Shown: one piece after another, positions 1 to 36,168 of the stretch
Position numbering within the stretch: position 1 is the first letter of the stretch
Layout of the letters: every line of letters begins with the position of its first letter
Assembly: GCA_934444365.1 (NCBI GenBank)
Contig: CAKSCM010000009.1
Location: 1-64,000 of the forward strand
DNA length: 64,000 nucleotides
Direction: 5' to 3'
Source: an uncultured Eubacteriales bacterium
GTDB taxonomy: Bacteria > Bacillota > Clostridia > Oscillospirales > Acutalibacteraceae
The notes under the pieces: model-generated
Database searches by the model: none
Told to the model about the DNA's origin: nothing
What the model saw: only the letters and a program-made list of their open reading frames with translations
Program-made: the position numbers and the translations under genes

Positions 1-270
1 TCCACCCGGATAACAGAATCATTTCCGGTCATTTTCAGCATGTATCCGTTGAGATCAAGAGTGACGGTACGGGTCACATTAAATGCCTCGTCGGTAACAA
101 TGTCTTTTGCCAGCCTGATGCTCGGTACGGCGTTGTCTGCCAGGGCATTTTTCAGTTCCGCCGCACTTGAGACATTCTTAAATGTCTCCCCCTCGGCAAA
201 TACGCCTGTCGGCACAATGCAGAACACCATACATAGGGCAAGCAGGATACTGATCAGTCGTTTCTTCATT
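1..270 (-). CDS. Secreted/lipoprotein-like hypothetical protein, 3' portion truncated by the window edge. N-terminal signal peptide MKKRLISILLALCMVFCIV.
   Basis: The reverse-strand ORF starts at ATG 268-270 and encodes a hydrophobic signal peptide followed by a polar domain. It runs off the window start. Confidence 0.5.
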
Positions 271-3091: not shown

Positions 3092-3106
3092 ATAAATTGC
3101 TTTGTG

Positions 3107-3135: not shown

Positions 3136-3710
3136 TACCTTGTTACGGGAATTGCTGTTATCAGGTGCAATTTGACCCTATGTTCGCTACCGGAAAGCCG
3201 ATAACTGTCACATATGTGATTTATTTGCCTTTTTACAAAATGTAAAGCTGATAATATACAAAAAAGGAATTATTTGGCTGGGGTTTTATTTACATAATTT
3301 AATCAGTATATTTTTTATACCGACCGTTATTCCACATTTTCCACAGAGTTTTCAACAGCCCTCAATCATGCATTATTACTATACTTTTGGCGTTTTTGTG
3401 ATTTTTGACCACGCTCCGCGATCGAATATTCGGTTAATTTCCGTAATTTAAAATGATTTACATAATCTGATTTTTTGTAATTTTCTTCTATGCAAATATT
3501 ACAAATAGTATTATTGGATTTCAGGTCAAAAAATACGGTTTTCAGGTCAAAAAAACAGTACAGTCGCCTGAAAAAATCAAGTGACCGTACTATTAAAATA
3601 TGACCTTGTATTTTTGGCCTTACAAAAGAGCCCTTAGTCGGCTCGGATTGGCAAAATCAGGTTAAATCGAGCGCGTTGAGTCGAGCCGTTCTGAGTTAAG
3701 CCGAACTGAC

Positions 3711-4673
3711 TCAACCTATCTTTCCCTGCATCATCGCCGCGCGTTTTGCTATTCTTATATCGTTGCCGCTAAAGCAGAACATATCGTAATAATACGCTAT
3801 ACGGGAAACAATCCGGTCGGTATACCGTGCGCGCAAGCCATCTGTAGTCAGATTTGTGCTGATAATGGTCGGCAAGGTATTCAGTATTCTGGTATTTATT
3901 ATGTCGTAAACGACCGATGTGTTAAACTGGCTTTGAAATTCCGTCCCCAAATCGTCGAGCACCAAAAGCTCGCATCTGTATATTTCGCCCAAGGTATCGG
4001 AATCCGACCGGCCGAAATGCTCATCCTCGATCTGCTTTATAAGACTTTGAGCCGAGGCATATATAACATAAAAGCCTTTTTTGGCGATCTCGGAGGCGAT
4101 GGCCACCGACAAATGCGTTTTGCCGAGTCCTGTGCTTCCGAGCATAAGCATGCTTCGCGAATTATGCGAAAAATCTCCGGCATATTCTCTGCAATGCTCA
4201 AGCAAAGCGCTCATTCGCGGCCTTTCGCTCTCGGGATAATATCCGACCGAAAAATTTTCAAAGCTGCAATCCTTATAAACGTCGGAAATTTTAAAGAGGT
4301 TACTTATTATTCTGTCGGTAAGCTTTTTAAGACATTCGCAATCCTCGCCCGCAAAAACGCCGGTATCGTTACATTTATCGCATGTATAGTGCGGCTTTGC
4401 TACATCGCTGCTGCCGTAATACGTTTTAAGCAGTTCGTTTATCTTTAACTGAATATCGTCAAGCTTGGCTTTAAGATCATCGCAATTACCGTCGGAAAGG
4501 GTGGCCTCAAGCAAACGTCCCCTTAGTTCATTCTTTTCTTTTTGGAGCTTTAAAAGGTCGGGATGCTCCAAATAAATTTCATCACAAATCGACAAAGCCT
4601 TACTTTCGGCGGCGCATTTGCGGTTAAATATAATCTGTTTTGCGCGCTGGCGCGCCTTTGTACGCACGTTCAA
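3711..4673 (-). CDS. dnaI: Primosomal helicase loader DnaI (IstB/DnaC-like AAA+ ATPase with an N-terminal Cys-rich zinc-binding domain).
   Basis: Walker A GSTGLGKTHL and Walker B LLVLDDLG. N-terminal CDKC..CEC zinc motif typical of Firmicute DnaI. Lies directly downstream of the DnaD-domain gene. Confidence 0.7.
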   Translation of the reverse strand: MNVRTKARQRAKQIIFNRKCAAESKALSICDEIYLEHPDLLKLQKEKNELRGRLLEATLSDGNCDDLKAKLDDIQLKINELLKTYYGSSDVAKPHYTCDKCNDTGVFAGEDCECLKKLTDRIISNLFKISDVYKDCSFENFSVGYYPESERPRMSALLEHCREYAGDFSHNSRSMLMLGSTGLGKTHLSVAIASEIAKKGFYVIYASAQSLIKQIEDEHFGRSDSDTLGEIYRCELLVLDDLGTEFQSQFNTSVVYDIINTRILNTLPTIISTNLTTDGLRARYTDRIVSRIAYYYDMFCFSGNDIRIAKRAAMMQGKIG

Positions 4674-4790
4674 AATTCAAGGCTCCTATCACTTTATATT
4701 AATCCACGTTGTAATCGGTATTTAAAATGACCTTTATACACCTTATAAAGGCAAAACAATCAAGCCGTTATTTTTATTTCCGGTACAAAA

Positions 4791-5915
4791 TTAAGCCTTG
4801 TCGGGCTGCCAGAAAAGACCGCTTATGTCACTGGTTTCGAATGACTCCTTGCGCATACCGTCCTCGGCCGTCTTTTTTGACTTTGACTGTCGCTTTTCGG
4901 CAGATACCCTATCTGCATCCTCCGGCGTTTTAACGCCCGCATCATGCCATGCCGAGAGCACCTTATCTATGTAGCTCATGTTCATTTTGCCGGTAGCGTC
5001 GATACAAACGTCGTACGCTTTTCTGAGCAGCTTTTGGGAGAAATGCCACTGCCCTATCCACCGTTCGGCATATATCTGCTCGCGGTTCGACGGACGTCTG
5101 AATTCCAGCGAAAAAGCCGACAGCACCTTCCGCCAATATCCGCCTAAAATCTCAACGCGCTTCAAATGCGCCTCGGCCTTTTCGACCGTGTCGATCTCAT
5201 CGCTCAGCCATTGCGCCGCAACCGACGAGATATATCGCATATTGCAGTGATCACTCGCTGAGGCATATTCTATTATCATGAGTATAACGGCGCACGGCAA
5301 ACCGTCGTTTATATGCAGCGCCACTAAATTTACCGTTTCTGAGGATGAAAGCGGACGTGCAAACCGCACCTGAGCCTCCTTTAAAAGCCAGGCCGTTTCG
5401 GGATCGTTCATAGCAAATTTTATTGCCTCTGCTCTGGTGAGGGTCCTTTTGGCATTTTCCGAAACCACCGCATTTATCGGTTTTTCAGCGCCTTCAGACC
5501 CTTCTTCCCCGTCATTTCGGTCGGACAGCGGCGATGTTTTTGCTTTTTTAAACTCATTGCCGCCGGCAGTACCGCCGTTATCATTCGCCTCGGCGGTATT
5601 CGGACTTATTTTCGCACTTGAAACGCCGTTTGTTTCCTGTATGCCTTCTTTTGCGGAAAAGACATCAGCCCTGTCTTCACAAGCGAAAACAAGGCCGTTA
5701 TCAATCCAATATTGCATGGCGTCGCACACGTCCCCCCGGGAAAGACCGAGAACGCGGGACAATTCCTCATCGTCACAGCTTTCTCCGGAATGGTAAAGGA
5801 GCCAAAGCAGCGCCTTTAGTTGCGCAGCTCCTGCCAGACGCAAATGCTTTTCAACCAGAACGCCGGGAACGGCAAAAACCTTGCCGTAAAGTGAAGAATT
5901 AAAACCGTAATTCAC
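4791..5915 (-). CDS. DnaD/DnaB-family replication initiation and membrane attachment protein.
   Basis: 374 aa. C-terminal DnaD-like DDBH2 region (SYIDKVLSAWHDAGVKTPEDADRV). Operonic with dnaI. Confidence 0.6.
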   Translation of the reverse strand: MNYGFNSSLYGKVFAVPGVLVEKHLRLAGAAQLKALLWLLYHSGESCDDEELSRVLGLSRGDVCDAMQYWIDNGLVFACEDRADVFSAKEGIQETNGVSSAKISPNTAEANDNGGTAGGNEFKKAKTSPLSDRNDGEEGSEGAEKPINAVVSENAKRTLTRAEAIKFAMNDPETAWLLKEAQVRFARPLSSSETVNLVALHINDGLPCAVILMIIEYASASDHCNMRYISSVAAQWLSDEIDTVEKAEAHLKRVEILGGYWRKVLSAFSLEFRRPSNREQIYAERWIGQWHFSQKLLRKAYDVCIDATGKMNMSYIDKVLSAWHDAGVKTPEDADRVSAEKRQSKSKKTAEDGMRKESFETSDISGLFWQPDKA

Positions 5916-19505: not shown

Positions 19506-19934
19506 TCAAAAATGGAAATCGATATTCTCAAAGGCCTGTTCGATATTCTCGTTGTCAATGGCGTTATTGCTCTTCTCCCATTTTTCGGCGCTCCAGACCT
19601 CAGCGCGGTTGGAAACGCCCGTTATATACGACGCACCGGCAAGTCCGGCATAATCGCGCAAATGCTGAGGGATAACTATTCTGCCCTGCTTATCGGTTTC
19701 GGCAACGGCAGCTCCTGCCAAAAAGTATCTGGTGATGTCGCGGTTTTCCTTGGTCATCGGAAGGGCCTTAAGCGCCGTTACAAAGCGCTCCCATTCGTCA
19801 AGAGGAAAAAGGAACAAACAGCCGTCAAGTCCTTTGCACATACAAAAACGCTCTCCGAGGTCCGAGCGGAACTCCGAGGGGATTATAAGACGTCCCTTTG
19901 CATCGATATTATGTTGATGTGTACCGAGAAGCAC
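19506..19934 (-). CDS. mraZ: Transcriptional regulator MraZ.
   Basis: Duplicated MraZ/SpoVT-AbrB fold (LLGTHQHNIDAKGRLIIPSEFR). First gene of the dcw cluster. Confidence 0.9.
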   Translation of the reverse strand: MLLGTHQHNIDAKGRLIIPSEFRSDLGERFCMCKGLDGCLFLFPLDEWERFVTALKALPMTKENRDITRYFLAGAAVAETDKQGRIVIPQHLRDYAGLAGASYITGVSNRAEVWSAEKWEKSNNAIDNENIEQAFENIDFHF

Positions 19935-20087
19935 CGCTGTTCACCCCTTTCTCAAAAGCATTTATATAAAATCAACGGCAATCGCCCGGATTTAATCACA
20001 TGATTTAATACATGATCTGCCTTGCAACGCAAAAACAGAGCATAAAACCCGTAAAAACCTCCCGAAACCTCGCCACTTTATGATATT

Positions 20088-20120
20088 TTTGCTCCACTTT
20101 GTGGAACTACGCTCCAATTA
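20088..20120. promoter_or_regulatory. Putative MraZ operator. 10-bp-phased GTGGAGC/TTCCACA/TTGGAGC repeats ~150 bp upstream of mraZ.
   Basis: Repeats seen in sequence. MraZ is known to bind phased direct repeats upstream of its own operon. Assignment is inferential. Confidence 0.3.
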
Positions 20121-20616
20121 TAAATAATATTCAATTAAATTTCAATAGCAAAAATAAATTTTTTTACTTAAAATTAAAATTTTTTTGCCCTCTTGTGTAC
20201 CAAACCGCTTTCACCACCTATATATAGTATACGAACATTCGTTCTATTAAGATAAACAAAAACCCAGTCACACTGCCGGAAAACGGGCTCTATATCAGAA
20301 CGGTTGTTCCGTTTTAACCCCAAAAAACGAAAATCCGCAATAAAACAATTTTGCCGTAATTTTTTGTCACATCATGTTTTCTCATTCCGCTTAACTTTTA
20401 ATAGATTTCATATCACCGCTTTCAGGCGGTATTTGTTAAGCGGATAAAGAGAAATTATAAGCGGCACGCCATCGTCTCCGATCAAACCGGCAGTTTCCGT
20501 AGCAAATAAAAATGCGGCACACGATTTCTCGCATACCGCATTATAAGCTATTATTCTTTTGTCTTTATCAGCCGCATATAAAAGCCTTTTTCAAATTCAA
20601 AGCCTTTATGACAGCC

Positions 20617-22005
20617 TTATTCTCCGGTCTGTTCGTCTAAAAGCAGCAGTTTAACCTCGGTCACCTGTCGTCTTACCGACTCCGGTGCCGGTCCGCCGGG
20701 CACAACACGTCCGTTAACACAATATTCGGGTGATATCTTCTCATAAATATCCTCATCGAACAGGTCGCTTTTGAGTCTATACTCCTCTATCGGAAGATCG
20801 TCAAGACAGGTATCAAGCTCAATGCACCGCTTGACCAACTCGCCGGTTAAGCGATAGGCATCCCTAAACGGCAGTCCCTTAGCCACCAGATAATCGGCCA
20901 CATCGGTGGCATTTATAAAGCCGAACGAGGCGTTCCTTCGCATATTCTCCTTCCTTACGGTCATGGTATTAACCATCGGAGTAAAGGCGTCAAGACACAT
21001 TTTAACCGTATCAACGGCGTCGAAAACAGCCTCCTTATCCTCCTGCATATCCTTGTTGTAAGCAAGCGGCAACCCCTTCATAACGCAAAGCAGCGCATTA
21101 AGGTCACCGAACACCCTGCCAGATTTTCCCCTTACAAGCTCGGCTATATCGGGATTTTTCTTCTGAGGCATTATGCTCGAACCGGTAGAAAATGCGTCGT
21201 CCAGGGTAACATAAGAAAACTCGCCCGAGCACCAGAGTATTATCTCCTCCGAAAATCTCGAAAGATGTACCATTATAAGGGAAAGGGCACTAAGCAGCTC
21301 TATAACAAAATCCCTGTCGGAGACCCCGTCAAGGCTGTTTGCGGTTATCCCGTCCATACTTAACAGCTCGGCAACGCGTTCGCGGTTTATCGGGTAGGTC
21401 GTACCGGCAAGCGCGCCGCTGCCGAGCGGAGAAATATTCATCCGTTTTTTGCAGTCGTCGATACGTCCGGCGTCGCGAACAAGCATATATGCGTACGCCA
21501 TTAAATGATGACCGAAGGTAATGGGTTGAGCACGCTGCAGATGGGTGTATCCGCACATCACGGTATCGGCATATTTTTCGCTTAAATCACACAGCACCCC
21601 AATGAGCTTTACGACTCGTGATTTAATTTCGTCCGCCTCGCGCAACAGATAAAGCCGTAAATCGAGCGCCACCTGATCGTTCCGGCTTCTGGCGGTATGC
21701 AGGCGTTTTCCGGCGTCGCCTATGCGAGCGGTAAGCTCACCCTCAACAAAGGAATGTATATCCTCGCTGGTCATATCGATCTTAAGCTTTCCCTCTTCAA
21801 TCTCTTTTAGTATATTTTTAAGGGTAGCGACTATCAGTTCGGAATCCTTCTTCTCGATTATACCGCATTCGCCGAGCATTGTGGCGTGCGCCATGCTGCC
21901 GAGTATATCCTCCTTGTACATTCTGCAATCGAATGATATTGACGAATTAAAATGATCGGTCACCTCGTCGAGCTTACCGTGATAAGCTCCTGCCCAAAGC
22001 TTCAT
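20617..22005 (-). CDS. argH: Argininosuccinate lyase ArgH.
   Basis: Fumarate-lyase signature GSSIMPQKKNPD. Start set at the conserved MKLWAG. Confidence 0.9.
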   Translation of the reverse strand: MKLWAGAYHGKLDEVTDHFNSSISFDCRMYKEDILGSMAHATMLGECGIIEKKDSELIVATLKNILKEIEEGKLKIDMTSEDIHSFVEGELTARIGDAGKRLHTARSRNDQVALDLRLYLLREADEIKSRVVKLIGVLCDLSEKYADTVMCGYTHLQRAQPITFGHHLMAYAYMLVRDAGRIDDCKKRMNISPLGSGALAGTTYPINRERVAELLSMDGITANSLDGVSDRDFVIELLSALSLIMVHLSRFSEEIILWCSGEFSYVTLDDAFSTGSSIMPQKKNPDIAELVRGKSGRVFGDLNALLCVMKGLPLAYNKDMQEDKEAVFDAVDTVKMCLDAFTPMVNTMTVRKENMRRNASFGFINATDVADYLVAKGLPFRDAYRLTGELVKRCIELDTCLDDLPIEEYRLKSDLFDEDIYEKISPEYCVNGRVVPGGPAPESVRRQVTEVKLLLLDEQTGE

Positions 22006-22420: not shown

Positions 22421-23680
22421 TCAGAACTTTCCGCCGCCACCGCCGTGCGTTGTACCCGACGATGAGGTATGTGTGCTGCTTCCGCCGGAGCTTGAGGAAT
22501 CATTATCCTTCGGCTTAGCCGTACGGCTGACCGTAGAATAAAGGAACATATCACGGCTCTCGCGGACATTCATGCTGCCGGGCTTTACATAGCTGTCGGC
22601 CGCCGCCGCAAAGCTAACGCTCCTTAACTTGCTCTTCATACCGCCGACAACCGCCGACGCAATAAGAATCCCTACGACAAGGGAGATCGGTATCCATATG
22701 AGTGAGAGCGGATCATGCGGTAAGTTGCCGACATCGTACGGCTTTCCGGTTTCGACCGCATTTGTCACAAAACGATCTACCTCGTTTGCATATATCCTGA
22801 AGGCCTCGGCATAATCGCCGTCGGAAAGATAACCGGTAAATTTGTCGGCAATATACTCCCTTCCGGCATCGGTAATGGCGGCAATTCCGTAGCCGGTAGT
22901 GGTAATATACCAATCCCTGTCCTCCATGCTTATAAGAAAGAGCACACCGTCCTTGTTTTCGCCGAACCCGAATCCGCTGTAATCATAAAGATCGTCGGCA
23001 TACTCTCTGGGCGTTTTCCCCGAGAGGGAATTGACGGTGGCTATAACAACGTCGAACTTCTGGCGCTCGCTTATCTCGTCAAGCTTGGCCTTTATTTCGG
23101 CCGCTTCGTCACTGCTGAGCAAGCCTGCCTCGTCCATAAGTCTCGGATATGTGCTTTGCGACACCTTGCTTTGAGCACCCGAGGTTACACTGCCGGTTCC
23201 GGCTGCAGACGAACGGGAAATTATGCTTTTTGCCGAGTTCAGATACGCCGTAAATCCGTCGGCATAGCTCATCTCATAGTTATATGCATCCCAAAAGCCT
23301 TCACAGTCGGCATTTGTAAACATACCGTCGCATTTGCCGGTTTTCCGAACAACGTATTCACCCTCATCCTCGTTAAGGACAAGCATAACGGAGTCCTGTT
23401 TACTAATACCTATTCCGCCGTAATTTTCGGCATATTTTCCGAGGCTGTTCGCTCCCTGATGATAGTCGTCGGTTATGAGCATTAAAACCTCAATACCGTA
23501 CTCGTCATATATGTCGTCGGCAAGCTCGTTTGCAGCGTCAAGAGCGGCATCCGGCGCATTCATGGTCTCATCGATAAAATACTTTGCCCCGTCGGCGCCT
23601 GTCATCACCGAAAAAGACGCAAGCGAGACGAGCACCGCAACCAAAAGGATAAAAATTGATTTAAGCTTTTTACCGGTCAT
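22421..23680 (-). CDS. TPM-domain (DUF477) membrane protein, YdjH/YgcG-like, with tandem TPM regions and a Gly/Ser-rich C-terminal tail.
   Basis: Signal/TM N-terminus, two TPM-like blocks, a C-terminal TM, then a GGSSTHTSSSGTTHGGGGG tail. GGAGG RBS at the chosen start. Confidence 0.65.
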   Translation of the reverse strand: MTGKKLKSIFILLVAVLVSLASFSVMTGADGAKYFIDETMNAPDAALDAANELADDIYDEYGIEVLMLITDDYHQGANSLGKYAENYGGIGISKQDSVMLVLNEDEGEYVVRKTGKCDGMFTNADCEGFWDAYNYEMSYADGFTAYLNSAKSIISRSSAAGTGSVTSGAQSKVSQSTYPRLMDEAGLLSSDEAAEIKAKLDEISERQKFDVVIATVNSLSGKTPREYADDLYDYSGFGFGENKDGVLFLISMEDRDWYITTTGYGIAAITDAGREYIADKFTGYLSDGDYAEAFRIYANEVDRFVTNAVETGKPYDVGNLPHDPLSLIWIPISLVVGILIASAVVGGMKSKLRSVSFAAAADSYVKPGSMNVRESRDMFLYSTVSRTAKPKDNDSSSSGGSSTHTSSSGTTHGGGGGKF

Positions 23681-23694
23681 ATTTTCATCCTCCC

Positions 23695-24789
23695 TTAAAG
23701 TATTCCGGCAAGCCAGAGCAGCCATGCTATTAAATATGTAGCGCCGCCGGCGATAAGGGTTACAAGCCACCGCCATTTTCTTGCGGCCGCTTTATCCACC
23801 GGGAGGTTGCCAACAAATTTGCCGGTTTGACCGTTCATGGCGAAAATGTACCTTTCGCCCTTCCATGTGGTGTTAAGAATCCACACCGGATACAGCGCAT
23901 ATCGCGCGTGGCCGTTGCTCAGGGATATACCCGAGCTTTCCGGAACAACGCTCGAATACCCCTGCACCGTTTTTTGAAACGCCTGCTCGGTCGAGTGTTT
24001 TACACGCTCGTCGGCACGGGTTATGCTCTGCTCGGACGAAACGTCGTATTTATCCGCCATGTAACCGGCAAGATAGGCCGTCTGGAACTCCTTTACGTCG
24101 GCAAAATCATACGGCTCAACCGATTCCATAAGATCATCCGGCATTTTCGACGAGCCGTCAACCGGAACATGCTCAAAGCTGATACTACCGGCCCTATGCA
24201 CAAGAAAATAGCTGGTTTCGGTGTAATCGTAATCGCTGTCGCTCCAAAACCTAACCTTGGTCGCACGGTAGCGTATGGTCGCATCCGCATCGGTATCAAA
24301 AAGCCAGAACGGAACATATACACCCTTTATCTCGTCAATGTGGTTTTCATCCTTAAAGACCTTAGGCAAAAGCCTCTTGCCCTTAAGATGATTGGAAAAT
24401 CCAGCCTTGGCGGCATTTTTATCGAGTTTAAACGGAATTATAAAATCCGGTTTCAGCGCACCCGAAAGCTTACCGGTCATAACCACCGGATTCGAGCAAT
24501 ACGGGCAGGTTGACGCCGCCGTATTTTCGTCGCACACAATTTCGCCGCCGCATGAATTACAAACATAGGTACAAAGCCCGTCGGCCTCGCCCGAAGACCA
24601 CTGTGCGCCCGGGGTATTCTCCCAGTTCATGTTATCCGAGATATCGTTTTTCAACTCGGCATCGTAATTCTTAAGCGTTTCAAGCTCAAATTCGGTGTCG
24701 CAATAAGGACACTTCATTTTTTGCAGCGCACTGTCAAACGCAATCGCACCGCCGCAACACGGGCACTTGTACTCCAGTAAATCGGACAT
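23695..24789 (-). CDS. Double-zinc-ribbon membrane-anchored protein (YdjG-like).
   Basis: Two N-terminal CxxC...CxxC ribbons (CPCCGG..CPYCD; CNSCGG..CPYCS), a central globular region, and a C-terminal TM helix. 14-bp gap to the TPM gene. Confidence 0.6.
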   Translation of the reverse strand: MSDLLEYKCPCCGGAIAFDSALQKMKCPYCDTEFELETLKNYDAELKNDISDNMNWENTPGAQWSSGEADGLCTYVCNSCGGEIVCDENTAASTCPYCSNPVVMTGKLSGALKPDFIIPFKLDKNAAKAGFSNHLKGKRLLPKVFKDENHIDEIKGVYVPFWLFDTDADATIRYRATKVRFWSDSDYDYTETSYFLVHRAGSISFEHVPVDGSSKMPDDLMESVEPYDFADVKEFQTAYLAGYMADKYDVSSEQSITRADERVKHSTEQAFQKTVQGYSSVVPESSGISLSNGHARYALYPVWILNTTWKGERYIFAMNGQTGKFVGNLPVDKAAARKWRWLVTLIAGGATYLIAWLLWLAGIL

Positions 24790-25056
24790 CTGCATATCCC
24801 CTTTTCAAAAAAACTAAATGCTGCACCAACCATAAAAACGTCAAAAGCTCAGGTGTTTTCTGAACGCATGACGGTCCTTCTCCTTCACGATACAGCATAA
24901 TGACCGCAAATATAAACCATATAAATTATATTCGCGGCCATTTGATCTGATTAATGTAGTTAAGTATTGCACCCGAATTAAGTATATCGCCCAAAAAATA
25001 AGCTTTTTCGGATAAACGGTATTCTCCTTTTTCAGATGCAACAAAAATATTTTAAA

Positions 25057-26397
25057 TTACTGTTTGTCGTTATCGTCGAAAACGTCGCCGCACTCAGGGC
25101 AGAACTTCGGCGGATGGGTGGGATCCTCCGGCTGCCAGCCGCATTTATCGCAGCGGTAAAGCGGTGCGCCTTCAGGCTTTTTAGCTCCGCAATTCTGGCA
25201 GAACTTGCCTTTATTGACTGCTCCGCACGAGCAGGTCCATCCTTCTTCGGCCGGTTTTTTTGCTCCGCATTCGGTGCAGAAATTACCCGTCGCCACAGCG
25301 CCGCACGAGCATTTCCAGCCGCCCGGCTGATTAGCTGCCGGCGCGCTCTTTGCGGCCGATTGCTGTGCAGCCGCCTGCTGTGCCGCTTGCTGCTGGCTCA
25401 TAGCGTAAAGATCCTGTGCATTAACGCCGCCGGTATTCATGGCCATCCCCATGCCCATAAATCCGGTAAAAGCACCTGCTTCATTCGATGCTGCCGCCTT
25501 CATGGCGTCGGCCTGAGCGCCGACCAGGGTTGCAGCAGCCATGCCGGGATCGCGCATCATACCGGTGCGCTGCGCCTGCTTTATCATATCGGCGTCTTCC
25601 TGCGGCAAATCGACATTGCTCAGCGCAATGCTCACTATCTTAAGACCTCTGAGCTCGCCCCATTTGTTTGAGAGCGTCTCGTTCATCGCATCTTCCAGCT
25701 CGGCATTATGCGCGGCGATTTGATTCGGACGCATTTCAAGCTCCGACAGCTTTGCAAGAGCCGGACGCAAAGCGCTTATGAATTCTGATTTGAGCTGTTT
25801 ATCAAGCTCCTCGCGGCGGTATTCGTCGCTGACATTACCGCAGACGTTGGTGTAAAAGAGTATCGGGTCGGCAATACGGTAAGAATAAACACCCGAGCAG
25901 CGTACCGAAACATCGACATCGAGACCTATTTTCGAATCGACCACACGGAAAGGAACGGGACTCGGAGTGCCGAAAAGATTTTCAAGCAGCTCCTTGGTGT
26001 TGAAGTAATAAACCCTCTGATCCTTGGCGGTATCTCCTCCGTAGGTAAAGCGCTTACCGATGGTTTTAAAGGTGTTTATTATCCCCTGTCCGAGTTTGCC
26101 GGCAAAAAGGCTCGGCTCGGTAGAAGAATCATATGTATACTCACCCGGCTCGGCGCAAAACTCAACCACCTTACCCTGTTCGACTATTATCATACACTGG
26201 CCGTCGGCAACGGCAATGCCCGAACCTCTCGAAATTATGTTGTCGTTGCCCTTGGTATTGGACGAACGGCCGCTTATCTGTTTACGGCCCTTTACCATAA
26301 GCACTTCCTTGTCAAGCGCCTCACAATAGAAAAATTCCTTCCACTGGTCGGCAAGGGTACCGCCTAAGGCTCCGACTCCGGCTTTTATAAGACCCAT
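25057..26397 (-). CDS. SPFH/Band-7 domain protein (COG4260 'virion core protein'-like, YdjI-like). It has a Gln/Ala-rich linker and four C-terminal zinc ribbons.
   Basis: N-terminal SPFH-like region and a QQAAQQAAAQQ linker. Then CSCG..CTECG, CSCG..CQNCG and CDKCG..CPECG ribbons. Confidence 0.65.
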   Translation of the reverse strand: MGLIKAGVGALGGTLADQWKEFFYCEALDKEVLMVKGRKQISGRSSNTKGNDNIISRGSGIAVADGQCMIIVEQGKVVEFCAEPGEYTYDSSTEPSLFAGKLGQGIINTFKTIGKRFTYGGDTAKDQRVYYFNTKELLENLFGTPSPVPFRVVDSKIGLDVDVSVRCSGVYSYRIADPILFYTNVCGNVSDEYRREELDKQLKSEFISALRPALAKLSELEMRPNQIAAHNAELEDAMNETLSNKWGELRGLKIVSIALSNVDLPQEDADMIKQAQRTGMMRDPGMAAATLVGAQADAMKAAASNEAGAFTGFMGMGMAMNTGGVNAQDLYAMSQQQAAQQAAAQQSAAKSAPAANQPGGWKCSCGAVATGNFCTECGAKKPAEEGWTCSCGAVNKGKFCQNCGAKKPEGAPLYRCDKCGWQPEDPTHPPKFCPECGDVFDDNDKQ

Positions 26398-26694: not shown

Positions 26695-27753
26695 TTATGC
26701 TTTTTTATCGATCCGGCCGTACAGCGGCGCCGTATCCATGTCCTTTTTCTGCTCGCGGTCAGGAGCGGATGTGGTGACCGGTCTGTCATTGCGCGGCCTG
26801 CGCTGATAGGAACGTCCTCTTGAATAAGAGCCGCCCCTCGAATCGCGGCGTCCCGAATCACGTCGGTTGTTGTAGGTTATATGGCCGTCCTTCGATGTAC
26901 CGATTACAACACGGCGATAAGGCTCGCTGCCTATTGACCATGAGGTTATTCCCTCAATGTCATGCACCGTCATGTGTATTATGCGGCGCTCGTAGGGATT
27001 CATCGGCTCAAGTGCGATATTCTTGCCGCTTTTAAGAGCCTGTGAAGCAATCCTCGAGGCTAAGGTCTGCAACGCCTTCTGGCGCTTGTTACGGTAGTCG
27101 CCGGTATTAAGCAGAATTCTCTGATAAGCGGTCTCGGAACCGTTTGCGGCAAGCACAGTAAGGTACTGAAGCGCATCAAGGGTCTCGCCTCTTCTTCCGA
27201 CAACGGCGCCTATGTTATCACCCTCAAGGGTTATTTCTATTCCGCCGTCGTAATCGCTCATGGAAATCTCGGCTTCTATATCCATGCAGGACAAAACCTT
27301 GGTGAGATATTCCTCGGCGCGCCGTGCGGTTTTAAGCTTTTCCTCGTCGGTGATGGGCCGTTTTTCGAATATATCGGCCTTTTCGCCGTCGGTTGTATCC
27401 TGAGTCTGAGAATCAGCCGGCTTTTCATTTTCCTTTTTATCTGCTTTCTCAGCCTTTTCGGCACGGACGGGTCTCGAGCTTCTTTGTGGCTTAAGGTCCT
27501 TTTTTCTATCGCGCTCGGGCGCGGCGGCACCGACCGGCTTTGTACCTGCCGGGTCTGCCTTCACCTCGTCCTCAAGCTCAATATACGCCCTTACCTTAGC
27601 CGGGCAACCGCCGAAAAGACCAAGGGTCTTTTTCTGCGGCATGTCGATTATCTCATATTTTACATCATCATCAATACCGGCGCCGAGCAATAATGCGGCG
27701 GCCTCGCGGGCCTCATCGACGGTAGCGCCGGTGGCGATAGCTTCCTTTATCAA
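26695..27753 (-). CDS. khpB: RNA-binding protein Jag/KhpB (Jag-N, KH and R3H domains).
   Basis: Domain order and the conserved position downstream of yidC. Confidence 0.8.
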   Translation of the reverse strand: MIKEAIATGATVDEAREAAALLLGAGIDDDVKYEIIDMPQKKTLGLFGGCPAKVRAYIELEDEVKADPAGTKPVGAAAPERDRKKDLKPQRSSRPVRAEKAEKADKKENEKPADSQTQDTTDGEKADIFEKRPITDEEKLKTARRAEEYLTKVLSCMDIEAEISMSDYDGGIEITLEGDNIGAVVGRRGETLDALQYLTVLAANGSETAYQRILLNTGDYRNKRQKALQTLASRIASQALKSGKNIALEPMNPYERRIIHMTVHDIEGITSWSIGSEPYRRVVIGTSKDGHITYNNRRDSGRRDSRGGSYSRGRSYQRRPRNDRPVTTSAPDREQKKDMDTAPLYGRIDKKA

Positions 27754-27787
27754 GGTTACACCTCCGAATATTTGAGCGAGACGAAAA

Positions 27788-28729
27788 CTACGCCTCGGTA
27801 CTTTCGATTATTTTCTTTTCTCTTTCCCTACGTAAATTCACGGTTTTCACTTCGCCGCGGGCTATTATCTTATAGGGCGACATATGCTTGTTGAGCAGCA
27901 CCTGAATGAGCATTCCGAGAAGATTCGAGCACATCCAGTAAAATCCTACCGCACCCGGTACTATAAAGGAAATGTAAAGCGACATAAAGGGCATAAGGAA
28001 CATCATGCAGCCCATATTTGCCGCTGCTTCGGGATTGGTCTTTTTCTGCATTCTCGTGGTTATCCACGACGAAAGGAAGGCCGAAGCAAAGGATGCCAGC
28101 GGAATAAGCCACAACAGCAGATCCGCTCCGGTAAGCTCCGAAAAACGCAAGGTAAACTTCGGCGTCTGGGTAAGATCGATACCGAAAAGGTTAAAGTCCA
28201 TTCCCCTTACACCGTCTACAATAGGCGCATATTCTGGATCGGTAAGTCCGGAAACGTTATGAATTACATCAAGCTCGGTTATCTGAGCGACCGTTTTGCC
28301 GAGGGTGTTCGCCACGGACTCCATAGCCTTGGAAATAAGCTCGGAATTTATATGCAGAATGTAAGAAAGCGGACTTCTTATAGCCATCCACACACCCCAC
28401 AAAAACGGAAGGGTTATCAGCTGAGGCAAACAACCGCCCATAAGCTTTACACCCTCACGGCGGTAAAGCTCCTGCATTTCCATATTATATTTCTGCTTGT
28501 CGTCGCCGCATCTTTCCTTAAGAGCATCAAGCTTGGGCCTTACGGCGGTCTGCTTGGCCGTGGCCTTTTGCTGATTTATGTTAACCGGTAAAAAAACCAG
28601 TTTTACAAGCAATGTAAATACTATTATCGCAACGGCGTAATTTCCGAGTGGGCTCCATATCGAACCGAGCAGATTATAAAGCTGCTCGAGCACCCAACCC
28701 ATGGCGCTGTAAATATACTTCAAAATCAA
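27788..28729 (-). CDS. yidC: Membrane protein insertase YidC/SpoIIIJ.
   Basis: Polytopic 60-kDa-IMP family protein in the rnpA-yidC-jag context. Confidence 0.9.
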   Translation of the reverse strand: MILKYIYSAMGWVLEQLYNLLGSIWSPLGNYAVAIIVFTLLVKLVFLPVNINQQKATAKQTAVRPKLDALKERCGDDKQKYNMEMQELYRREGVKLMGGCLPQLITLPFLWGVWMAIRSPLSYILHINSELISKAMESVANTLGKTVAQITELDVIHNVSGLTDPEYAPIVDGVRGMDFNLFGIDLTQTPKFTLRFSELTGADLLLWLIPLASFASAFLSSWITTRMQKKTNPEAAANMGCMMFLMPFMSLYISFIVPGAVGFYWMCSNLLGMLIQVLLNKHMSPYKIIARGEVKTVNLRREREKKIIESTEA

Positions 28730-28818
28730 TTCCTCCGGCCGTAATCGCGGCCATCATCAAAAAAATCCTTGGTTTAAGGCTCTGATGCCTTTTGTTTTGG
28801 GTTATTTTGGTATTGGGA

Positions 28819-29076
28819 TTATTCCGGCTTTTCAGGTTTTCCCGGCTGCTTTTTTTCCGCCGTTTTTTCGGGCACCGGATCATATCCGCCTGCATGGAAC
28901 GGATGACATTTCAGTATCCGTCTTAAAGCAAGCCAACCGCCCTTAATTGCCCCAAAACGCTCAATTGCAGTGAGCGCATACTCCGAGCATGTCGGCGTAA
29001 AACGGCAACACGGCGGTTTTAAAGGGGATATTCCCTTTCTGTAGGCGGTTATGAGAAAAATAAGTAGCTTTTTCAT
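28819..29076 (-). CDS. yidD: Membrane protein insertion efficiency factor YidD.
   Basis: 85 aa with the conserved [10 protein letters not shown] and HPxxxGGYDPVP motifs. Confidence 0.85.
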
Positions 29077-29128
29077 TTTTTACTGCCGGTTTCATGCTTT
29101 TTGTCCGGCCGTTTACGGCGCTTAACCG

Positions 29129-29491
29129 CTATTCACATATGACATTAAGCTTTAAAAGCTGCCGCCGCATCTCCCGTGCGACATCGTTCATATTAACCGA
29201 TGCCGTCCTCGTTCGCGCGACAAAAACAAGGTCATAGCTACCCGTTATTTCGGGATACAGCGCTCTGAAGGCTTCCCTTATAACCCTTTTGGAGCGGTTG
29301 CGCTCGACGGCGCCGCCGACCTTTTTGCCGGCGGTAATTCCGTAACGAACGGCATTGCCTTTGCCTTTTGTACAATAGGTTACAAGCGTAGATCCGACAA
29401 TATACTTTCCACGTGAATATAACCGGCGAAAATCATGGTTTTCCTTTAATACAACAGGCTTCAAAGGTAATCCCCCGTTCAGGTAAAACAA
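29129..29491 (-). CDS. rnpA: Ribonuclease P protein component RnpA.
   Basis: Basic 120-aa protein with an RNR-like motif (KRVIRE). Sits between rpmH and yidD. Confidence 0.85.
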   Translation of the reverse strand: MFYLNGGLPLKPVVLKENHDFRRLYSRGKYIVGSTLVTYCTKGKGNAVRYGITAGKKVGGAVERNRSKRVIREAFRALYPEITGSYDLVFVARTRTASVNMNDVAREMRRQLLKLNVICE

Positions 29492-29505
29492 GATACTCAG
29501 CGCTT

Positions 29506-29640
29506 TTACGCGCTAAGTACCTTGCGGCCCCTTGCTCTGCGACGAGCCAAAACCTTGCGGCCGTCTGCGGTGGACATTCTTTTACGGAAACCGTGCACCT
29601 TGCTGCGATGACGCTTTTTAGGCTGATAAGTTCTGATCAC
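29506..29640 (-). CDS. rpmH: 50S ribosomal protein L34 (GTG start).
   Basis: My own translation gives [52 protein letters not shown]. It was not in the ORF track because it is under 60 aa. Confidence 0.9.
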
Positions 29641-29949
29641 ATCAATACACTCCTTTCAAAACGCAGGGCTAAATATAATAAAATACATAACACAAATTGC
29701 TGTCCAACACAAAAAGGACGCGACCCTGCGAATTTAAATTTTACTATAAATCCAACGCAATGTCAACACAAAATTTCTCATTCTTTCAATTAAAGAGCTT
29801 AGAATCCATCCGCACTGTTTATAGTTATGATATTCTCCGAAAACCGCCTGAACCAAACAGGCCCTGCGACTTAAAATCAAGAAGCAGAGCCCGTTCGGTA
29901 TTGGAAGGAGATACAGTTACAAAACTGTGGAAATGTCGTAATTTTTATA

Positions 29950-31521
29950 TCAGCTGTTGGCCGTTCCGAGGGTTATTTTTACGGTGTAAAGCTTATTCTG
30001 CCTGTAAACCGTGAGGGATATCGTCTCACCCGGAGCATATTTCGCCTTTTCGCTGTTGTACATGGTAAGGCTGGTAATATCGGTGTTATTGAACTGGGTT
30101 ATTATGTCGCCGCGCTGTAATCCCGCCGACTCGGCCGGACTTCCTTCGCTTACCCTTTCGACTACAACACCCGACGGATATCCCATCATATTGAGACGTT
30201 CGGAGGTATAATAGCTGCTTATATCAAGTCCCAAATATGCCTGCGGCTCGTCGACGTTTTCGATTATTCTCTTGCAGATCGAAACAACGGTGTTTGACGG
30301 AATGGCAAAGCCCATTCCCTCGTATTCGGTAGAGGCAAGCTTTGCACTGTTAAGGCCGATAAGAAAACCGTTAGAGTTAACAAGCGCACCGCCCGAGTTG
30401 CCGGGGTTTATGGCTGCGTCGGTCTGAATAAGGTTTACATATTCGCCGGTGTTTTCCATCTGAATGGTACGGTTAAGGCCGCTTATTATTCCGGCGCTCA
30501 CCGAGCCCATAAACTGCAATCCGCCGGGATTTCCGACCGCGACGGCGGTGTTGCCGACCTTGACCTCGTCCGAGTCGCCGATCTCTATTGCGGTAAGACC
30601 GGTTTTTTCGATTTTTACCACGGCCAGATCGGCACTGACATCGTATCCTATAACCTTGGCATCAATAGCCGTTTGTGGATCGCTCGGCAAAAAGACCGAT
30701 ATGCTTCCGTTGTTTTCGACCGCTTCGGATATAACATGATAATTGGTCACTATATATCCGTCGGAGGAATATATGACCCCCGAGCCTTCGCCGCTTTTAT
30801 CGGTGGATCCGTAAAAGAAATAATTGACCGAGAAGGTGGTCCTTATCCCGACGACCGAAGGCGATACCTTTTCGGCAATGGCCTCAACGAGCGAATCCGA
30901 GCTGCTCTCGACTATATTTATCTGTTTTATTGCACTGTCCTCGGAGTCATATGACTCGGTCACCGATGTGTCGTTCCCGTCGCCGGTGACTATTCCGGTT
31001 TTTCCGGCCAGCATAAAGGCCATGGAGGTGCAAACACTCGATATTATAGCGCACACAAGTGCGATTGACACTATCATTCCCACCGTAACGTTGGTGGTTT
31101 TTTGGGTGTGCTTATGACCCTTGGGATTTTTACCGTCATGCAGCGAAACCGGAACCACCGGCTGATTGTCCTGATGAGAACCGTACCCCGGCATAAAGGT
31201 TATTTCCTTTTGAGGGGTAAAACTGTTGACCGTCGGCCCGGGATTCGGAGCGTTTTCAAAGCCGCTTTCGGCCGCCGTATTTGATGTAAAGCCGCCTGCC
31301 GGAGTATCGCTTGCTCCGTTTACCGCCGGATCGCTGCTGTCCCGGTATAAAAAACCTCCGTCGGCCGGATTAATATTATGATCGTTTTCCGATGATTCGG
31401 ACTGAATACCCGCAAATCCGGCGGATTCCTCCCGGCCGTCCGTTTTTTCCGAAAAGCCTTCTTTGCCGCCCATGATACCGTTTTCATTATTGATATTGTT
31501 TTTGTTATCAAAGCTATCCAT
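29950..31521 (-). CDS. HtrA/DegP-family trypsin-like serine protease with PDZ domain, an N-terminal disordered region and a TM anchor.
   Basis: Catalytic GNSGGAL motif, a C-terminal PDZ, and a TM helix (VGMIVSIALVCAIISSV). Start set at the RBS-supported second ATG. Confidence 0.85.
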   Translation of the reverse strand: MDSFDNKNNINNENGIMGGKEGFSEKTDGREESAGFAGIQSESSENDHNINPADGGFLYRDSSDPAVNGASDTPAGGFTSNTAAESGFENAPNPGPTVNSFTPQKEITFMPGYGSHQDNQPVVPVSLHDGKNPKGHKHTQKTTNVTVGMIVSIALVCAIISSVCTSMAFMLAGKTGIVTGDGNDTSVTESYDSEDSAIKQINIVESSSDSLVEAIAEKVSPSVVGIRTTFSVNYFFYGSTDKSGEGSGVIYSSDGYIVTNYHVISEAVENNGSISVFLPSDPQTAIDAKVIGYDVSADLAVVKIEKTGLTAIEIGDSDEVKVGNTAVAVGNPGGLQFMGSVSAGIISGLNRTIQMENTGEYVNLIQTDAAINPGNSGGALVNSNGFLIGLNSAKLASTEYEGMGFAIPSNTVVSICKRIIENVDEPQAYLGLDISSYYTSERLNMMGYPSGVVVERVSEGSPAESAGLQRGDIITQFNNTDITSLTMYNSEKAKYAPGETISLTVYRQNKLYTVKITLGTANS

Positions 31522-31653
31522 ATATGTCAACTCCCGTAGGGTTTTGTAAGACATTATTACGACATCTAAAACAAACGCTGTCTTTGTTTTTCTGATTGTA
31601 TTGTATTCCTATTATGTGAATAATTAATTAAGAAGGTTTGCATATTTCGTAAA

Positions 31654-32313
31654 TTACAAACGGCCGTTTTTTATTTCATATTGCACCGAAGCACAGGCTA
31701 TAAGCTCCGGATCATGTGTCGCCGCTATTACGGTTGTGCCATCTTTCCGCATTTTTTTCAAAAAGCCCGTAACAGCACCCGTGCTTTCTTTATCGAGGCT
31801 GGCGGTAGGCTCATCGGCAATAAGCAGCTCGGGCGCGTAAACTGCGGCACGCGCGAGTCCCACTCTTCTGAGCTGTCCGCCCGAAAGCTCAAACGGATAG
31901 CAGTTTTCTTTTCCGATAAGTCCGACGCCGCACAGAGCCTCAAGGGCTGCACTTTGTCTTTTTTTCGATGTTACTCCGCGGTATTTAAGCGGCATACAGA
32001 CATTTTCCAAAACGGTTATATTGCTTATAAGGGCATCCTCCTGCATTACAAAGCCTATTTGCCTTTTAAGATAAGTAGGCATACAACGCCCCTTTTTGAT
32101 CCTTCTGCCCTTGTAGGTGTAATCTCCGCTGTCTACTGTATCGATTCCGCCGATTATATTAAGCAGGGTGCTTTTCCCGATTCCCGATCTTCCCGAAAAA
32201 ACCGCAAATTCGCCCGTCCGAACCTTGAGCGAAAGGTTTTTCAGCACCTCGATTGTTTCGCCGTTTGCGCAGATGTATTTTTTGTTAATTTTTTCAAGCT
32301 TTACTATTTCCAT
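31654..32313 (-). CDS. ABC transporter ATP-binding protein (FtsE/LolD/MacB-like). No adjacent permease.
   Basis: Walker A GRSGIGKST, signature LSGGQ, Walker B LLIADEPT. Confidence 0.85.
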   Translation of the reverse strand: MEIVKLEKINKKYICANGETIEVLKNLSLKVRTGEFAVFSGRSGIGKSTLLNIIGGIDTVDSGDYTYKGRRIKKGRCMPTYLKRQIGFVMQEDALISNITVLENVCMPLKYRGVTSKKRQSAALEALCGVGLIGKENCYPFELSGGQLRRVGLARAAVYAPELLIADEPTASLDKESTGAVTGFLKKMRKDGTTVIAATHDPELIACASVQYEIKNGRL

Positions 32314-32569
32314 AATATCCGGCCGCTCCGAAAGTCATCCTGATTTTTATTAGTATTGTCAGCTTTTCGGTATAAAAACGTATTCGCTGCAGAAAATATT
32401 AAAAAGAAAAAGCAATAATTTTTCCGCAAATCGGCGTTTTAAGATAAAAACCATAATCAATGACAACGGCAAAACAAAAAGGCCGGCGGTCCTGGTTTTT
32501 ATCACACAGACACACCGTCTTAAAAGCCGTCCTTTACGGAAAGCTTATATTTAAAGGAGTAAGCCATTT

Positions 32570-33013
32570 ATGAGTTTTACAAATAAACAGTATTCCGAAA
32601 TGATCGACAAGGCCTCTCCCCCGTCGAGTGTTTTAAAGGACTGCATATGCGCCTTTCTTGTGGGCGGAGCCATCTGCCTGCTCGGGCAGGTACTTACCAA
32701 TCTTTTTGTATCGGCCGGAATAGAAGCCGAAACGGCAAAAACGGTCTCTACAATATCCCTCGTTTTTCTTTCGGCCCTTTCTACCGCCTGCCGTTTTTAC
32801 GATAATATTGCACGCCATGCCGGCGCCGGAACCCTCGTCCCCATTACCGGCTTTGCCAACGCCATAGTCTCCCCTGCCATGGAGTTCAAAAGCGAAGGAC
32901 TTGTAATAGGCACGGGTGTAAAGATGTTTAATATAGCAGGCCCCGTAATAGTTTACGGTACCACCGCAAGCGTAATTTACGGAATAATCCTCTGGATCAT
33001 CGGTATGTTTTAA
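32570..33013 (+). CDS. spoVAC: Stage V sporulation protein AC.
   Basis: SpoVAC/SpoVAEB-family membrane protein, 147 aa. Precedes spoVAD. Confidence 0.85.
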   Translation: MSFTNKQYSEMIDKASPPSSVLKDCICAFLVGGAICLLGQVLTNLFVSAGIEAETAKTVSTISLVFLSALSTACRFYDNIARHAGAGTLVPITGFANAIVSPAMEFKSEGLVIGTGVKMFNIAGPVIVYGTTASVIYGIILWIIGMF

Positions 33014-33065
33014 AAATAAAAGCAACGTAAATCTGTCGGGATACATCACAAAAGGAGAAAATGCA

Positions 33066-34085
33066 ATGCCCTCACGCATAGGTAATTACACATTAAAGCT
33101 TGAAAAAGCCCCCTACATTTCGGGATACGGCTCGTGCGCCGGAGAAAAGGAGGCGGCAGGCCCCATAGGCAAGGAATTCGACCTTACCTTTGACGACCCC
33201 TATTTAGGACAAGCCACCTGGGAAAAGGCCGAAAGCGAAATGCTCCGCATAGCAATACAGTATGCCCTTGACAAAAGCGGACTTAAAAGCAGCGATATAA
33301 ACTATCTTTTTGCCGGCGATCTGCTTAATCAGTGCACCGGCTCGACCTTCGGCGCAATCGGATTTAACATTCCTCATATCGGACTTTTCGGCGCATGCTC
33401 TACAATGGCACTTTCCTTAGGTCTTGCTGCCTGCTTTACCGACGCCGGACTCGCAAAAAATGCGCTTGCCGCCACCTCGTCGCATTTTTGCACGGCCGAA
33501 AGACAGTTTCGCTATCCGCTCGAATACGGCGGACAGCGCACCCCGACCGCCCAGTGGACCGCAACGGCGGCCGGCGCCATGACGGTATCGGCCGAAAAAA
33601 CCGGAATTTCAAAGGTCCGCATAAGCGATGTTACCTTCGGCAGAATAACCGACAAGGATGTAAAGGACCCTAACAACATGGGCGCCGCCATGGCCCCGGC
33701 CGCATGCGACACAATATGCAATTTCCTGCGGGACACGGGTACCGCTCCCGATGATTACGACGTTATAATAACCGGCGACCTCGGACGGGTAGGCTCAAAT
33801 CTGCTTTACGAGCTTTTGGCCGCCGACGGTTACGATATAACCGAAAATCACGCCGATTGCGGATTGCTGATATTCTCACCGCAAACTCAGGACGTTCACT
33901 CCGGAGGCTCGGGGTGCGGCTGCTCGGCTAGCGTTTTGTGCTCAAGGATAATGCACAATATGGAAATGCAAAAGCTTAAAAACGTCCTTTTCTGTGCGAC
34001 CGGAGCGCTCATGTCGCCGACCTCCCAGCAGCAAAAAAACAGCATTCCGGGTATTGCCCATTTAATACACATGACCACGATCTGA
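33066..34085 (+). CDS. spoVAD: Stage V sporulation protein AD (thiolase-like fold).
   Basis: 339 aa with a thiolase-like Cys region (FGACSTMAL). Follows spoVAC. Confidence 0.85.
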   Translation: MPSRIGNYTLKLEKAPYISGYGSCAGEKEAAGPIGKEFDLTFDDPYLGQATWEKAESEMLRIAIQYALDKSGLKSSDINYLFAGDLLNQCTGSTFGAIGFNIPHIGLFGACSTMALSLGLAACFTDAGLAKNALAATSSHFCTAERQFRYPLEYGGQRTPTAQWTATAAGAMTVSAEKTGISKVRISDVTFGRITDKDVKDPNNMGAAMAPAACDTICNFLRDTGTAPDDYDVIITGDLGRVGSNLLYELLAADGYDITENHADCGLLIFSPQTQDVHSGGSGCGCSASVLCSRIMHNMEMQKLKNVLFCATGALMSPTSQQQKNSIPGIAHLIHMTTI

Positions 34086-34883: not shown

Positions 34884-35669
34884 TTACTCGCCGTCCCTTG
34901 CGTCGACAATAACTCCGCTGTCGCCCATTACGTTGGGCAGCTTTCCGTCCCATTTGTTCCATTTTACATACTCGACGTAATCCGGCGAGGCTGACAATGC
35001 GTCCTGAATGAGCTTTATGCTCTCGGCCTCGGCCTGAGCCTGGGTAACCTGCTGTTTGGCCTCAACCTCAATACGGGCTAAATCCTGCTCGGCCTTAAGA
35101 GCATTTTGCTGGGCAGTCTGCTTGGCCTCTACCGCGGCGTTGAATTCGTCGGAAAAATCGAAATTCACGATATTGAATATCTCTACGACAATTCCGTATT
35201 CGCCAATCTTTTCCGAAAGGGCGGATTTTATCTGATCACCCACGCTTTGCCGCTCGGTTATAAGCTCCTCGGCCGTATACTGAGCCGCGACCGCCTTAAT
35301 GCTTTCCTGTATGGCCGGCGAAATAATAACGTTGCTGTAATCGCCGCCGACATTTTTGTAAACCGAGGCCGAAGCGGTTGTATTAACGCGGTAGTTTACC
35401 GCGACAACATACGACACTATCTGCAAATCCTTCGAGGAGGCAGTGCCGTCGGTCTCGATCTTTTGGGTGCGGTTGTTAACCTGTATTACCTTCTGGACAA
35501 AGGGCGTTTTAAAATGAAGTCCCTCCGCAAGCACATTATCGGACACCGCTCCGAAGGTGGTAACAACGCCGGTATGACCCGACTCGACCACCGTAAAGCA
35601 GGACGATATAACAGCAATGACTATTACGGCCAACACCGCCCATAAGCCTATTTTTACCGGTTTTTTCAT
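34884..35669 (-). CDS. SPFH/Band-7 (prohibitin/stomatin-like) membrane protein.
   Basis: N-terminal TM, SPFH core, and a C-terminal coiled coil (EAKQTAQQNALKAEQDLARIEVEAKQQ). GGAGG RBS at the chosen start. Confidence 0.8.
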   Translation of the reverse strand: MKKPVKIGLWAVLAVIVIAVISSCFTVVESGHTGVVTTFGAVSDNVLAEGLHFKTPFVQKVIQVNNRTQKIETDGTASSKDLQIVSYVVAVNYRVNTTASASVYKNVGGDYSNVIISPAIQESIKAVAAQYTAEELITERQSVGDQIKSALSEKIGEYGIVVEIFNIVNFDFSDEFNAAVEAKQTAQQNALKAEQDLARIEVEAKQQVTQAQAEAESIKLIQDALSASPDYVEYVKWNKWDGKLPNVMGDSGVIVDARDGE

Positions 35670-36168
35670 AACTTCCTCCGAAAATATATTTTTCTGAAAC
35701 ATGTCAAGTATCGCACCCGATAGGTAAAAAACGATTCTTACCCTTTGTCGGTGCAGCACAAGGCGTAATTTCCGAAATACCGCTTTATTCAAAAAGACCC
35801 ATACACAAATCCGGAATTTGCGTATGAGTCTTATTCTTTAAGGACGGACCGAGGAGATTTATCAGTTCTCCCGTGATGACGATCCCATCCCGCGTATTCC
35901 GCGGAACTACTCCCTCATATTTCATTATTTACATATTACCACCTTTATTTTCTTTTGTCAAGATTTTTGTGTTGCCCGACCGATCTATAAGCACTCTTAT
36001 TTTGTCGTTTCTAAAAACAATTTCCGTTATTAAAGCACTTTTCTTTGCGTTTTTTGCACAAAAAAGTATTGTAATTACTCCCCCGCTGTGATACAACATA
36101 CCCGTCGATAATCCTATAAGCCGTTCACTCACCACAGACGTGACGGCTTCGACATTAAGGAGGGACAA

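Follow-up and report, generated by a model that had tools for sequence, protein, structure and literature searches.

In an uncultured Acutalibacteraceae-like gut Clostridium of the Oscillospirales, the genes rpmH, rnpA, yidD, yidC and jag form an intact operon that does not lie beside dnaA and the chromosomal replication origin (oriC). We analysed it on a stretch of 64,000 nucleotides (assembly GCA_934444365.1, contig CAKSCM010000009.1, positions 1 to 64,000), called the window in the following. Very probably this is an ordinary, self-contained operon which was separated from dnaA and oriC by genome rearrangement, with no origin at or near rpmH. The initial annotation of the window had proposed for this genome either such a separation or an origin elsewhere. 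The separation is real, yet this genome is no special case: among the 60 related loci with at least 1.5 kb of sequence upstream of rpmH, 56 also have no dnaA adjacent to it. The uncoupling of rpmH from dnaA is old and widespread, and it is the norm in the Acutalibacteraceae-like family.

The five genes and the features upstream of them are arranged in the window as follows:

26695-27753, minus strand: jag/khpB, with Jag_N, KH and R3H domains (Pfam), the last gene of the block
27788-28729, minus strand: yidC, membrane insertase (60KD_IMP, Pfam 4.3e-41)
28819-29076, minus strand: yidD, membrane protein insertion efficiency factor (Pfam 6e-33)
29129-29491, minus strand: rnpA, RNase P protein (Pfam Ribonuclease_P, 8.3e-26)
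29506-29640, minus strand: rpmH, ribosomal protein L34, with a GTG start (Pfam Ribosomal_L34, matched over 1-44 of 44 positions, 2.1e-21)
29641-29949: spacer between rpmH and htrA, 309 bp
29950-31554, minus strand: htrA, trypsin-like protease with a PDZ domain (Pfam), at the place where dnaA would be
31654-32313, minus strand: ABC-type ATPase (Pfam ABC_tran), with no permease gene beside it
32314-32569: spacer between the divergent ABC ATPase and spoVAC genes, 63% AT, with no DnaA-box cluster
32570-34085, plus strand: sporulation genes spoVAC and spoVAD (Pfam), divergent from the ABC ATPase gene

With these matches Pfam confirms the jag-yidC-yidD-rnpA-rpmH block of the initial annotation, all on the minus strand, including the full-length L34 gene with its GTG start, and also the same-strand htrA and orphan ABC ATPase genes that follow rpmH. 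Only the length of the spacer after rpmH had to be corrected, from 310 to 309 bp. In ten conspecific contigs jag is likewise called as a gene of 352 amino acids.

A divergent dnaA-dnaN pair directly upstream of rpmH is not found in the window, since htrA occupies this place. We extended the search to 71.5 kb by adding 7.5 kb from a conspecific contig of 132.5 kb, which overlaps the window over 13,299 nucleotides with no mismatch. In the window and this extension DnaA, DnaN, MnmE, MnmG, RsmG and ParB have no match at E≤1e-3. In the 64 kb of the window itself five DnaA queries taken from relatives yield no dnaA by tblastn, in agreement with the earlier remark that none is visible; the sole window match to these queries is the AAA+ core of an IstB/DnaC-like open reading frame (3711-4673). 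The layout mnmE-mnmG-rsmG-(noc)-parA/parB is also missing 3' of jag. Here jag is followed by genes for an SPFH protein, a hypothetical protein and a TPM-domain protein, by argH and then by a complete dcw cluster (mraW, ftsL, pbp, murE, mraY, ftsW, murG, murA, ftsQ, ftsZ).

The GC skew stays below zero over the entire window and keeps its sign at rpmH: measured over 8 kb on either side it amounts to -0.092 (left) and -0.084 (right). Nor is there a divergence of gene orientation at rpmH, both sides being on the minus strand. Between 1 and 44.4 kb, 32 of 35 genes lie on the minus strand, and from 44.9 kb onward the orientation is mixed and mostly plus. In order to separate the effect of gene orientation from replication-strand skew we used 4-fold degenerate sites, which gave the following coding-strand values:

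Minus-strand genes: GC skew -0.13, AT skew -0.20
Plus-strand genes: GC skew -0.33, AT skew 0.00

At these sites G and T are enriched on the minus strand for genes of either strand throughout 0-71.5 kb, the values being noisy for single genes. Two related loci in which dnaA does lie beside rpmH (L029 and L079) served as positive controls, and in both the skew changes at dnaA, from about -0.10 to -0.17 on one side to +0.10 to +0.16 on the other. Therefore the method can detect an origin in this family, and none is seen at rpmH in the window. The initial annotation had proposed either a rearrangement or an origin elsewhere, with a skew plot as a check and a skew minimum at this block as the observation that would contradict it. 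No such minimum is present, and its reading is supported by the same sign of the skew on both sides of rpmH, by the flips in the controls and by the canonical layout that a minority of relatives has kept (see below).

Because G and T are enriched on the minus strand, which also carries 32 of the 35 genes between 1 and 44.4 kb, we infer that it is the leading strand throughout 0-71.5 kb, that the whole window belongs to one replichore and that replication proceeds toward lower coordinates. The origin should therefore lie to the right, on the side of the higher coordinates and over 42 kb away from rpmH, and the rpmH operon is still transcribed in the same direction as replication.

Studying the related loci shows how common this situation is. 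In total 698 YidC homologues were found, the nearest one outside the species being about 60% identical, and the best GTDB representative genomes among the matches listed reach 54-57% YidC identity. We compared the 80 loci with the best YidC matches. By tblastn the five-gene block is intact in all 80, wherever the contig allows this to be seen. The rpmH gene is carried by 74 loci, with at least 1.5 kb of upstream sequence in 60 and at least 3 kb in 52. Only four of these 60 loci (L029, L048, L079 and L084) have dnaA adjacent to rpmH and divergent from it. L029 possesses the full layout dnaN-dnaA<->rpmH...jag-mnmE-mnmG-rsmG-parB, and L079 has the same layout except that parB was not detected. 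In nine loci mnmE lies 3' of jag, either directly or past one short open reading frame. Upstream neighbours in the other loci include genes for an SDR protein, a radical-SAM protein, a phosphomannose isomerase, a GH123 hydrolase and a DUF5050 protein as well as spoIID with citrate synthase, and in about 20 loci an EPSP-synthase-family gene, an MBL-fold gene and rlmH are found 3' of jag. Because a minority of the relatives still keeps the order dnaN-dnaA<->rpmH...parB, this canonical layout is plausibly ancestral and was later broken.

The closest relatives (54-60% YidC identity) show each a different context, with comEC upstream in one, the spoIIIA operon and an AbrB-like gene in two, and a DUF5050 gene as a further neighbour, and their blocks sit deep inside contigs of 76-220 kb. 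Beyond the five genes there is essentially no synteny between the window and its relatives. Exceptions are the distant locus L019, where htrA and rpmH are adjacent as in the window, and L013, where a spoVAD homologue with reversed relative orientation is found at the far end, some 9 kb from rpmH on its upstream side. The genomes are heavily rearranged, and the five-gene operon stands out in them as a short stretch of preserved gene order.

A different pattern of orientation was observed in a subgroup of five of the related loci (L044, L054, L066, L072 and L075). There all genes upstream of rpmH, which lies at about 9.2 kb in each locus, diverge from rpmH, and the skew changes partially, from -0.09 to -0.17 upstream to about zero downstream of rpmH, with no dnaA nearby; the intergenic gap at rpmH is only about 200 bp.

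Instead of an old separation, a recent insertion or inversion of tens of kb between rpmH and dnaA could be envisaged, which would leave dnaA and oriC just beyond the examined sequence. The polarity of the skew points to an origin on the right, the mixed, mostly plus orientation from 44.9 kb would fit this idea, and local inversions around the origin do occur in the family, as seen in L051. In this locus dnaA (19573-20859, plus strand) shares its strand with the rpmH block and is found 8.7 kb past jag, the genes between jag and dnaA are mnmE-mnmG-rsmG-parB-parA-parB, and the whole segment from rpmH to parB looks inverted relative to dnaA. However, the 42 kb to the right of rpmH contain no dnaA, this stretch is made up of housekeeping and sporulation genes with no integrase or transposase among them, and mnmE and mnmG have been lost on the other side, by jag, as well. 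In addition, the linkage is absent even in the closest relatives, which argues for an old event, and we therefore regard a recent one as improbable.

The organism is known from metagenome assemblies only, and the junction could for this reason be suspected to be an assembly or binning artefact, in which a piece from near the origin was fused with unrelated DNA into a chimeric contig. But the gene order at the rpmH-htrA junction is identical in at least ten contigs, three of them 111-133 kb long, which stem from different samples and assemblers (MEGAHIT, SPAdes, Logan), so that an artefact is highly improbable. The same Jag protein is encoded on a contig of 133,861 nucleotides, and near-identical variants of it are present on contigs of 233-297 kb; samples in which the species occurs include ERZ28615090 and ERZ15609737.

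For the two spacers, 29641-29949 and 32314-32569, only weak DnaA-box-like 9-mers had been reported. In neither of them does TTATCCACA match with at most one mismatch; with two mismatches it matches once in each, which is chance level at a background of 3.1 per kb. The variant TTWTCMACA of this family is likewise absent from both. Scanned over the whole window, TTATCCACA with at most one mismatch gives 18 matches versus 12.7 expected, with no cluster. The earlier description of the spacers is thus correct and boxes are indeed absent, but as an argument against an origin this is weak when taken alone, because the canonical relatives show no cluster of the classical box either, and we treat the scan with this box as uninformative.

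What clusters in relatives are the TTWTCMACA variants TTATCAACA, TTTTCAACA and TTTTCCACA, and they do so in the dnaA-dnaN spacers of L029, L048 and L079. This points to a probable position of the origin core on the dnaN side of dnaA in the relatives that keep dnaA beside rpmH, which is also where it is reported to be located in B. subtilis and C. difficile (bioRxiv 10.1101/2020.07.08.193532). The AT content of the rpmH-proximal spacer is 63% in the window versus 70-82% in the spacers flanking dnaA in L029, L048 and L079, and 56-61% in L084.

Motifs of this kind are also present at another place of the window. At 3329-3357 (plus strand) three DnaA-box-like motifs stand in tandem (TTATTCCACA TTTTCCACA gag TTTTCAACA), within an intergenic region of 1.35 kb (2364-3710), directly 3' of the dnaI-like gene and about 240 nucleotides upstream of a tRNA-Gly gene. 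The window holds three exact TTWTCMACA motifs, two of which lie at 3329-3357, 12 nucleotides apart, and a direct repeat, TTTCAGGTCAAAAAA, occurs twice at about 3520-3556. With a relaxed pattern the best box cluster of the window falls at 2.9-3.4 kb, in this AT-rich spacer near tRNA-Gly and dnaI. As an origin it was rejected, for there is no skew flip. For the same reason the group at 3329-3357, instead of marking an origin, may represent a DnaA-binding cluster.

The spacer between rpmH and htrA contains three features, all on the minus strand:

29738-29766, minus strand: sigma-70-type promoter-like site TTGACA-17-TAAAAT, 11 of 12 consensus positions, function predicted
29641-29731, minus strand: predicted 5' leader of rpmH, about 90 nucleotides, from minimum-free-energy folds and with a start deduced from the promoter
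29852-29899, minus strand: long hairpin of 16+4 bp about 50 nucleotides past the htrA stop, fold z-score of the spacer -2.8

In the predicted leader stem CGCAGGG (29730-29724) pairs with CCCUGCG (29668-29662) and encloses an inner GUCC/GGAC hairpin. Just 3' of this stem follow UUUUGAAAGGAG, the Shine-Dalgarno sequence, and then the GTG start. The long hairpin is a probable htrA terminator or insulator; we assign it this role with reserve because it has no strong U tract. By their sequence these predicted features are ordinary expression signals, and they would fully account for the 309 bp.

This bears on the proposal that the rpmH-htrA spacer or the spacer between the ABC ATPase gene and spoVAC could be a functional oriC without an adjacent dnaA. 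In some bacteria oriC does lie away from dnaA (PMC4285127), and the spacer is moderately AT-rich (63%). Nevertheless, neither a sign change of the skew nor a divergence of gene orientation is seen at either spacer, neither contains a box with at most one mismatch or a TTWTCMACA motif, and the 309 bp are mostly occupied by the terminator-like hairpin, the promoter and the 90-nucleotide leader. An origin in one of these spacers is therefore hardly credible.

The separation of the operon from dnaA and oriC by rearrangement is the explanation that we favour. Genome rearrangement would have parted the rpmH-rnpA-yidD-yidC-jag operon from dnaA and oriC in this lineage. The operon would be expressed from its own strong promoter (29766-29738) via the structured leader of about 90 nucleotides, and the long hairpin would insulate it from htrA; with a promoter, leader and insulation of its own it could function independently of a nearby dnaA. 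Provided that dnaA has the origin core on its dnaN side, the rpmH side could be removed without harm to the origin.

Several points weigh against this explanation. The dnaA gene and oriC of the species were not found in the 71.5 kb searched. The skew is modest, and at 45-71 kb it is near zero and confounded by gene orientation. As mentioned, the classical DnaA box is unclustered even in the canonical relatives, and the scan for it is therefore without power in the positive controls. Furthermore, the 80 related loci were chosen as best YidC matches and are not a random sample, and all of them are contigs of metagenome-assembled genomes.

The relatives also provide information on the signals in front of rpmH. 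Where a promoter can be identified, it reads in nearly all of them TTGACA-16..18 (mostly 18)-TATAAT before rpmH, a perfect consensus, whatever lies upstream. After the promoter, about 60-115 nucleotides upstream of rpmH, almost all of the relatives L011-L090 share a conserved leader (aATYGATAGGYTATG...RTAACCGC). The rpmH leaders of the relatives form 5' hairpins analogous to that of the window, in which an outer helix encloses a variable inner hairpin. A covariance model (R1) built from the leaders of 18 relatives matches the rpmH leader in 43 loci, and outside these leaders it has a single weak match in 1.13 Mb. R1 does not detect the leader of the window, which has an analogous predicted stem and is a divergent version of the relatives' leader.

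Bearing in mind that the alignment was fitted to model R1, the outer helix of the relatives is 91.8% paired and shows changes on both sides in 4 of 7 pairs (for example GGTTAT/ATAACC, GGCTAT/ATAGCC and GGTTGT/ACAACC), its score is reached by 0 of 500 shuffles, and the pairing falls to 30-52% when the 3' partners are slid by one to three columns. In the relatives, rpmH therefore possesses a structured leader, that is a conserved and compensated helix between promoter and start codon. Rfam did not recognize it: at gathering thresholds nothing beyond two tRNAs was found in the window, only chance-level matches were obtained for the rpmH-htrA spacer at E≤10, and in four relatives nothing was found at the rpmH leaders.

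From these data a wider view could be derived, which we offer tentatively and consider rather doubtful. The rpmH-rnpA-yidD-yidC-jag block of the Acutalibacteraceae might be a portable module that moved to many contexts and carried along its consensus promoter TTGACA-18-TATAAT and the conserved leader absent from Rfam, possibly an undescribed element responding to L34 or to the RNase P protein, with a divergent version in the window.

A conserved and structured 5' untranslated region (UTR) of rpmH, with no function assigned, is known from streptococci (PMC6431027). Like this streptococcal 5' UTR, the leader of the relatives is located between promoter and rpmH, is conserved in sequence and fold and is suspected of a regulatory role; unlike it, the relatives' leader belongs to a different sequence family and has no match in Rfam.

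The rnpA-rpmH-dnaA-dnaN context has been said to appear conserved in Firmicutes (bioRxiv 10.1101/2020.07.08.193532), and to this conservation the Acutalibacteraceae-like family is an exception. The window shares with the canonical region of B. subtilis and C. difficile the same rpmH-rnpA-(yidD)-yidC-jag operon, whose transcription is co-directional with replication. It differs by htrA in place of dnaA, by the lack of mnmE, mnmG, rsmG and parB past jag, and by having neither a skew flip nor a DnaA-box cluster. According to a review, oriC is found in other gene contexts in many bacteria and the gene cluster is not needed for its function (PMC4285127). For Zymobacter palmae a transposition of the mnmE-rpmH genes has been described in which dnaA and its spacer kept their place (bioRxiv 10.1101/2025.08.05.668638). 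The break described here is the same kind of event; however, in Z. palmae it concerns a single species, whereas here the uncoupling extends across most of a family and has led to many different new neighbours. The break between rpmH and dnaA is thus a known kind of synteny break and an ordinary, old rearrangement. Our literature search yielded no paper on the origin context in the Acutalibacteraceae-like family.

For practical work this means that rpmH or rnpA as an anchor for origin prediction or for the start coordinate of a genome is wrong here and in most of the family. The markers to use instead for these genomes are dnaA-dnaN and GC skew. In all other respects this is a common housekeeping operon that poses no new question of mechanism.

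Some further genes of the window deserve mention. Directly 3' of jag (22421-26397, minus strand) lie consecutively a TPM-domain gene, a gene for a zinc-ribbon-rich protein of 366 amino acids with no Pfam match, and a gene for an SPFH protein of 446 amino acids that carries zinc-ribbon repeats at its C-terminus. A second SPFH gene is located at 34884-35792. The conspecific contigs differ here by strain-level insertions and deletions: compared with L001, a deletion of about 815 bp in L003 and L006 removes much of the 446-amino-acid SPFH gene (window 25057-26397), and L002 and L003 carry an insert of 2.2 kb, with a TetR gene and two small open reading frames, before an APH-family gene (window about 37.6-37.77 kb).

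At the end of the dcw cluster, directly after ftsZ (3711-5915, minus strand), a DnaB_2-domain (DnaD/DnaB-like) gene and the gene for an IstB/DnaC-like AAA+ protein are found, which probably represent a chromosomal helicase-loader pair. The rest of the window encodes transporters and metabolic enzymes. Close to its left end (302-1693, minus strand) lies a gene for a protein with collagen-triple-helix repeats. Contigs of three independent assemblies terminate no more than about 1.3 kb away from it, suggesting that the collagen-type repeats break assemblies there.

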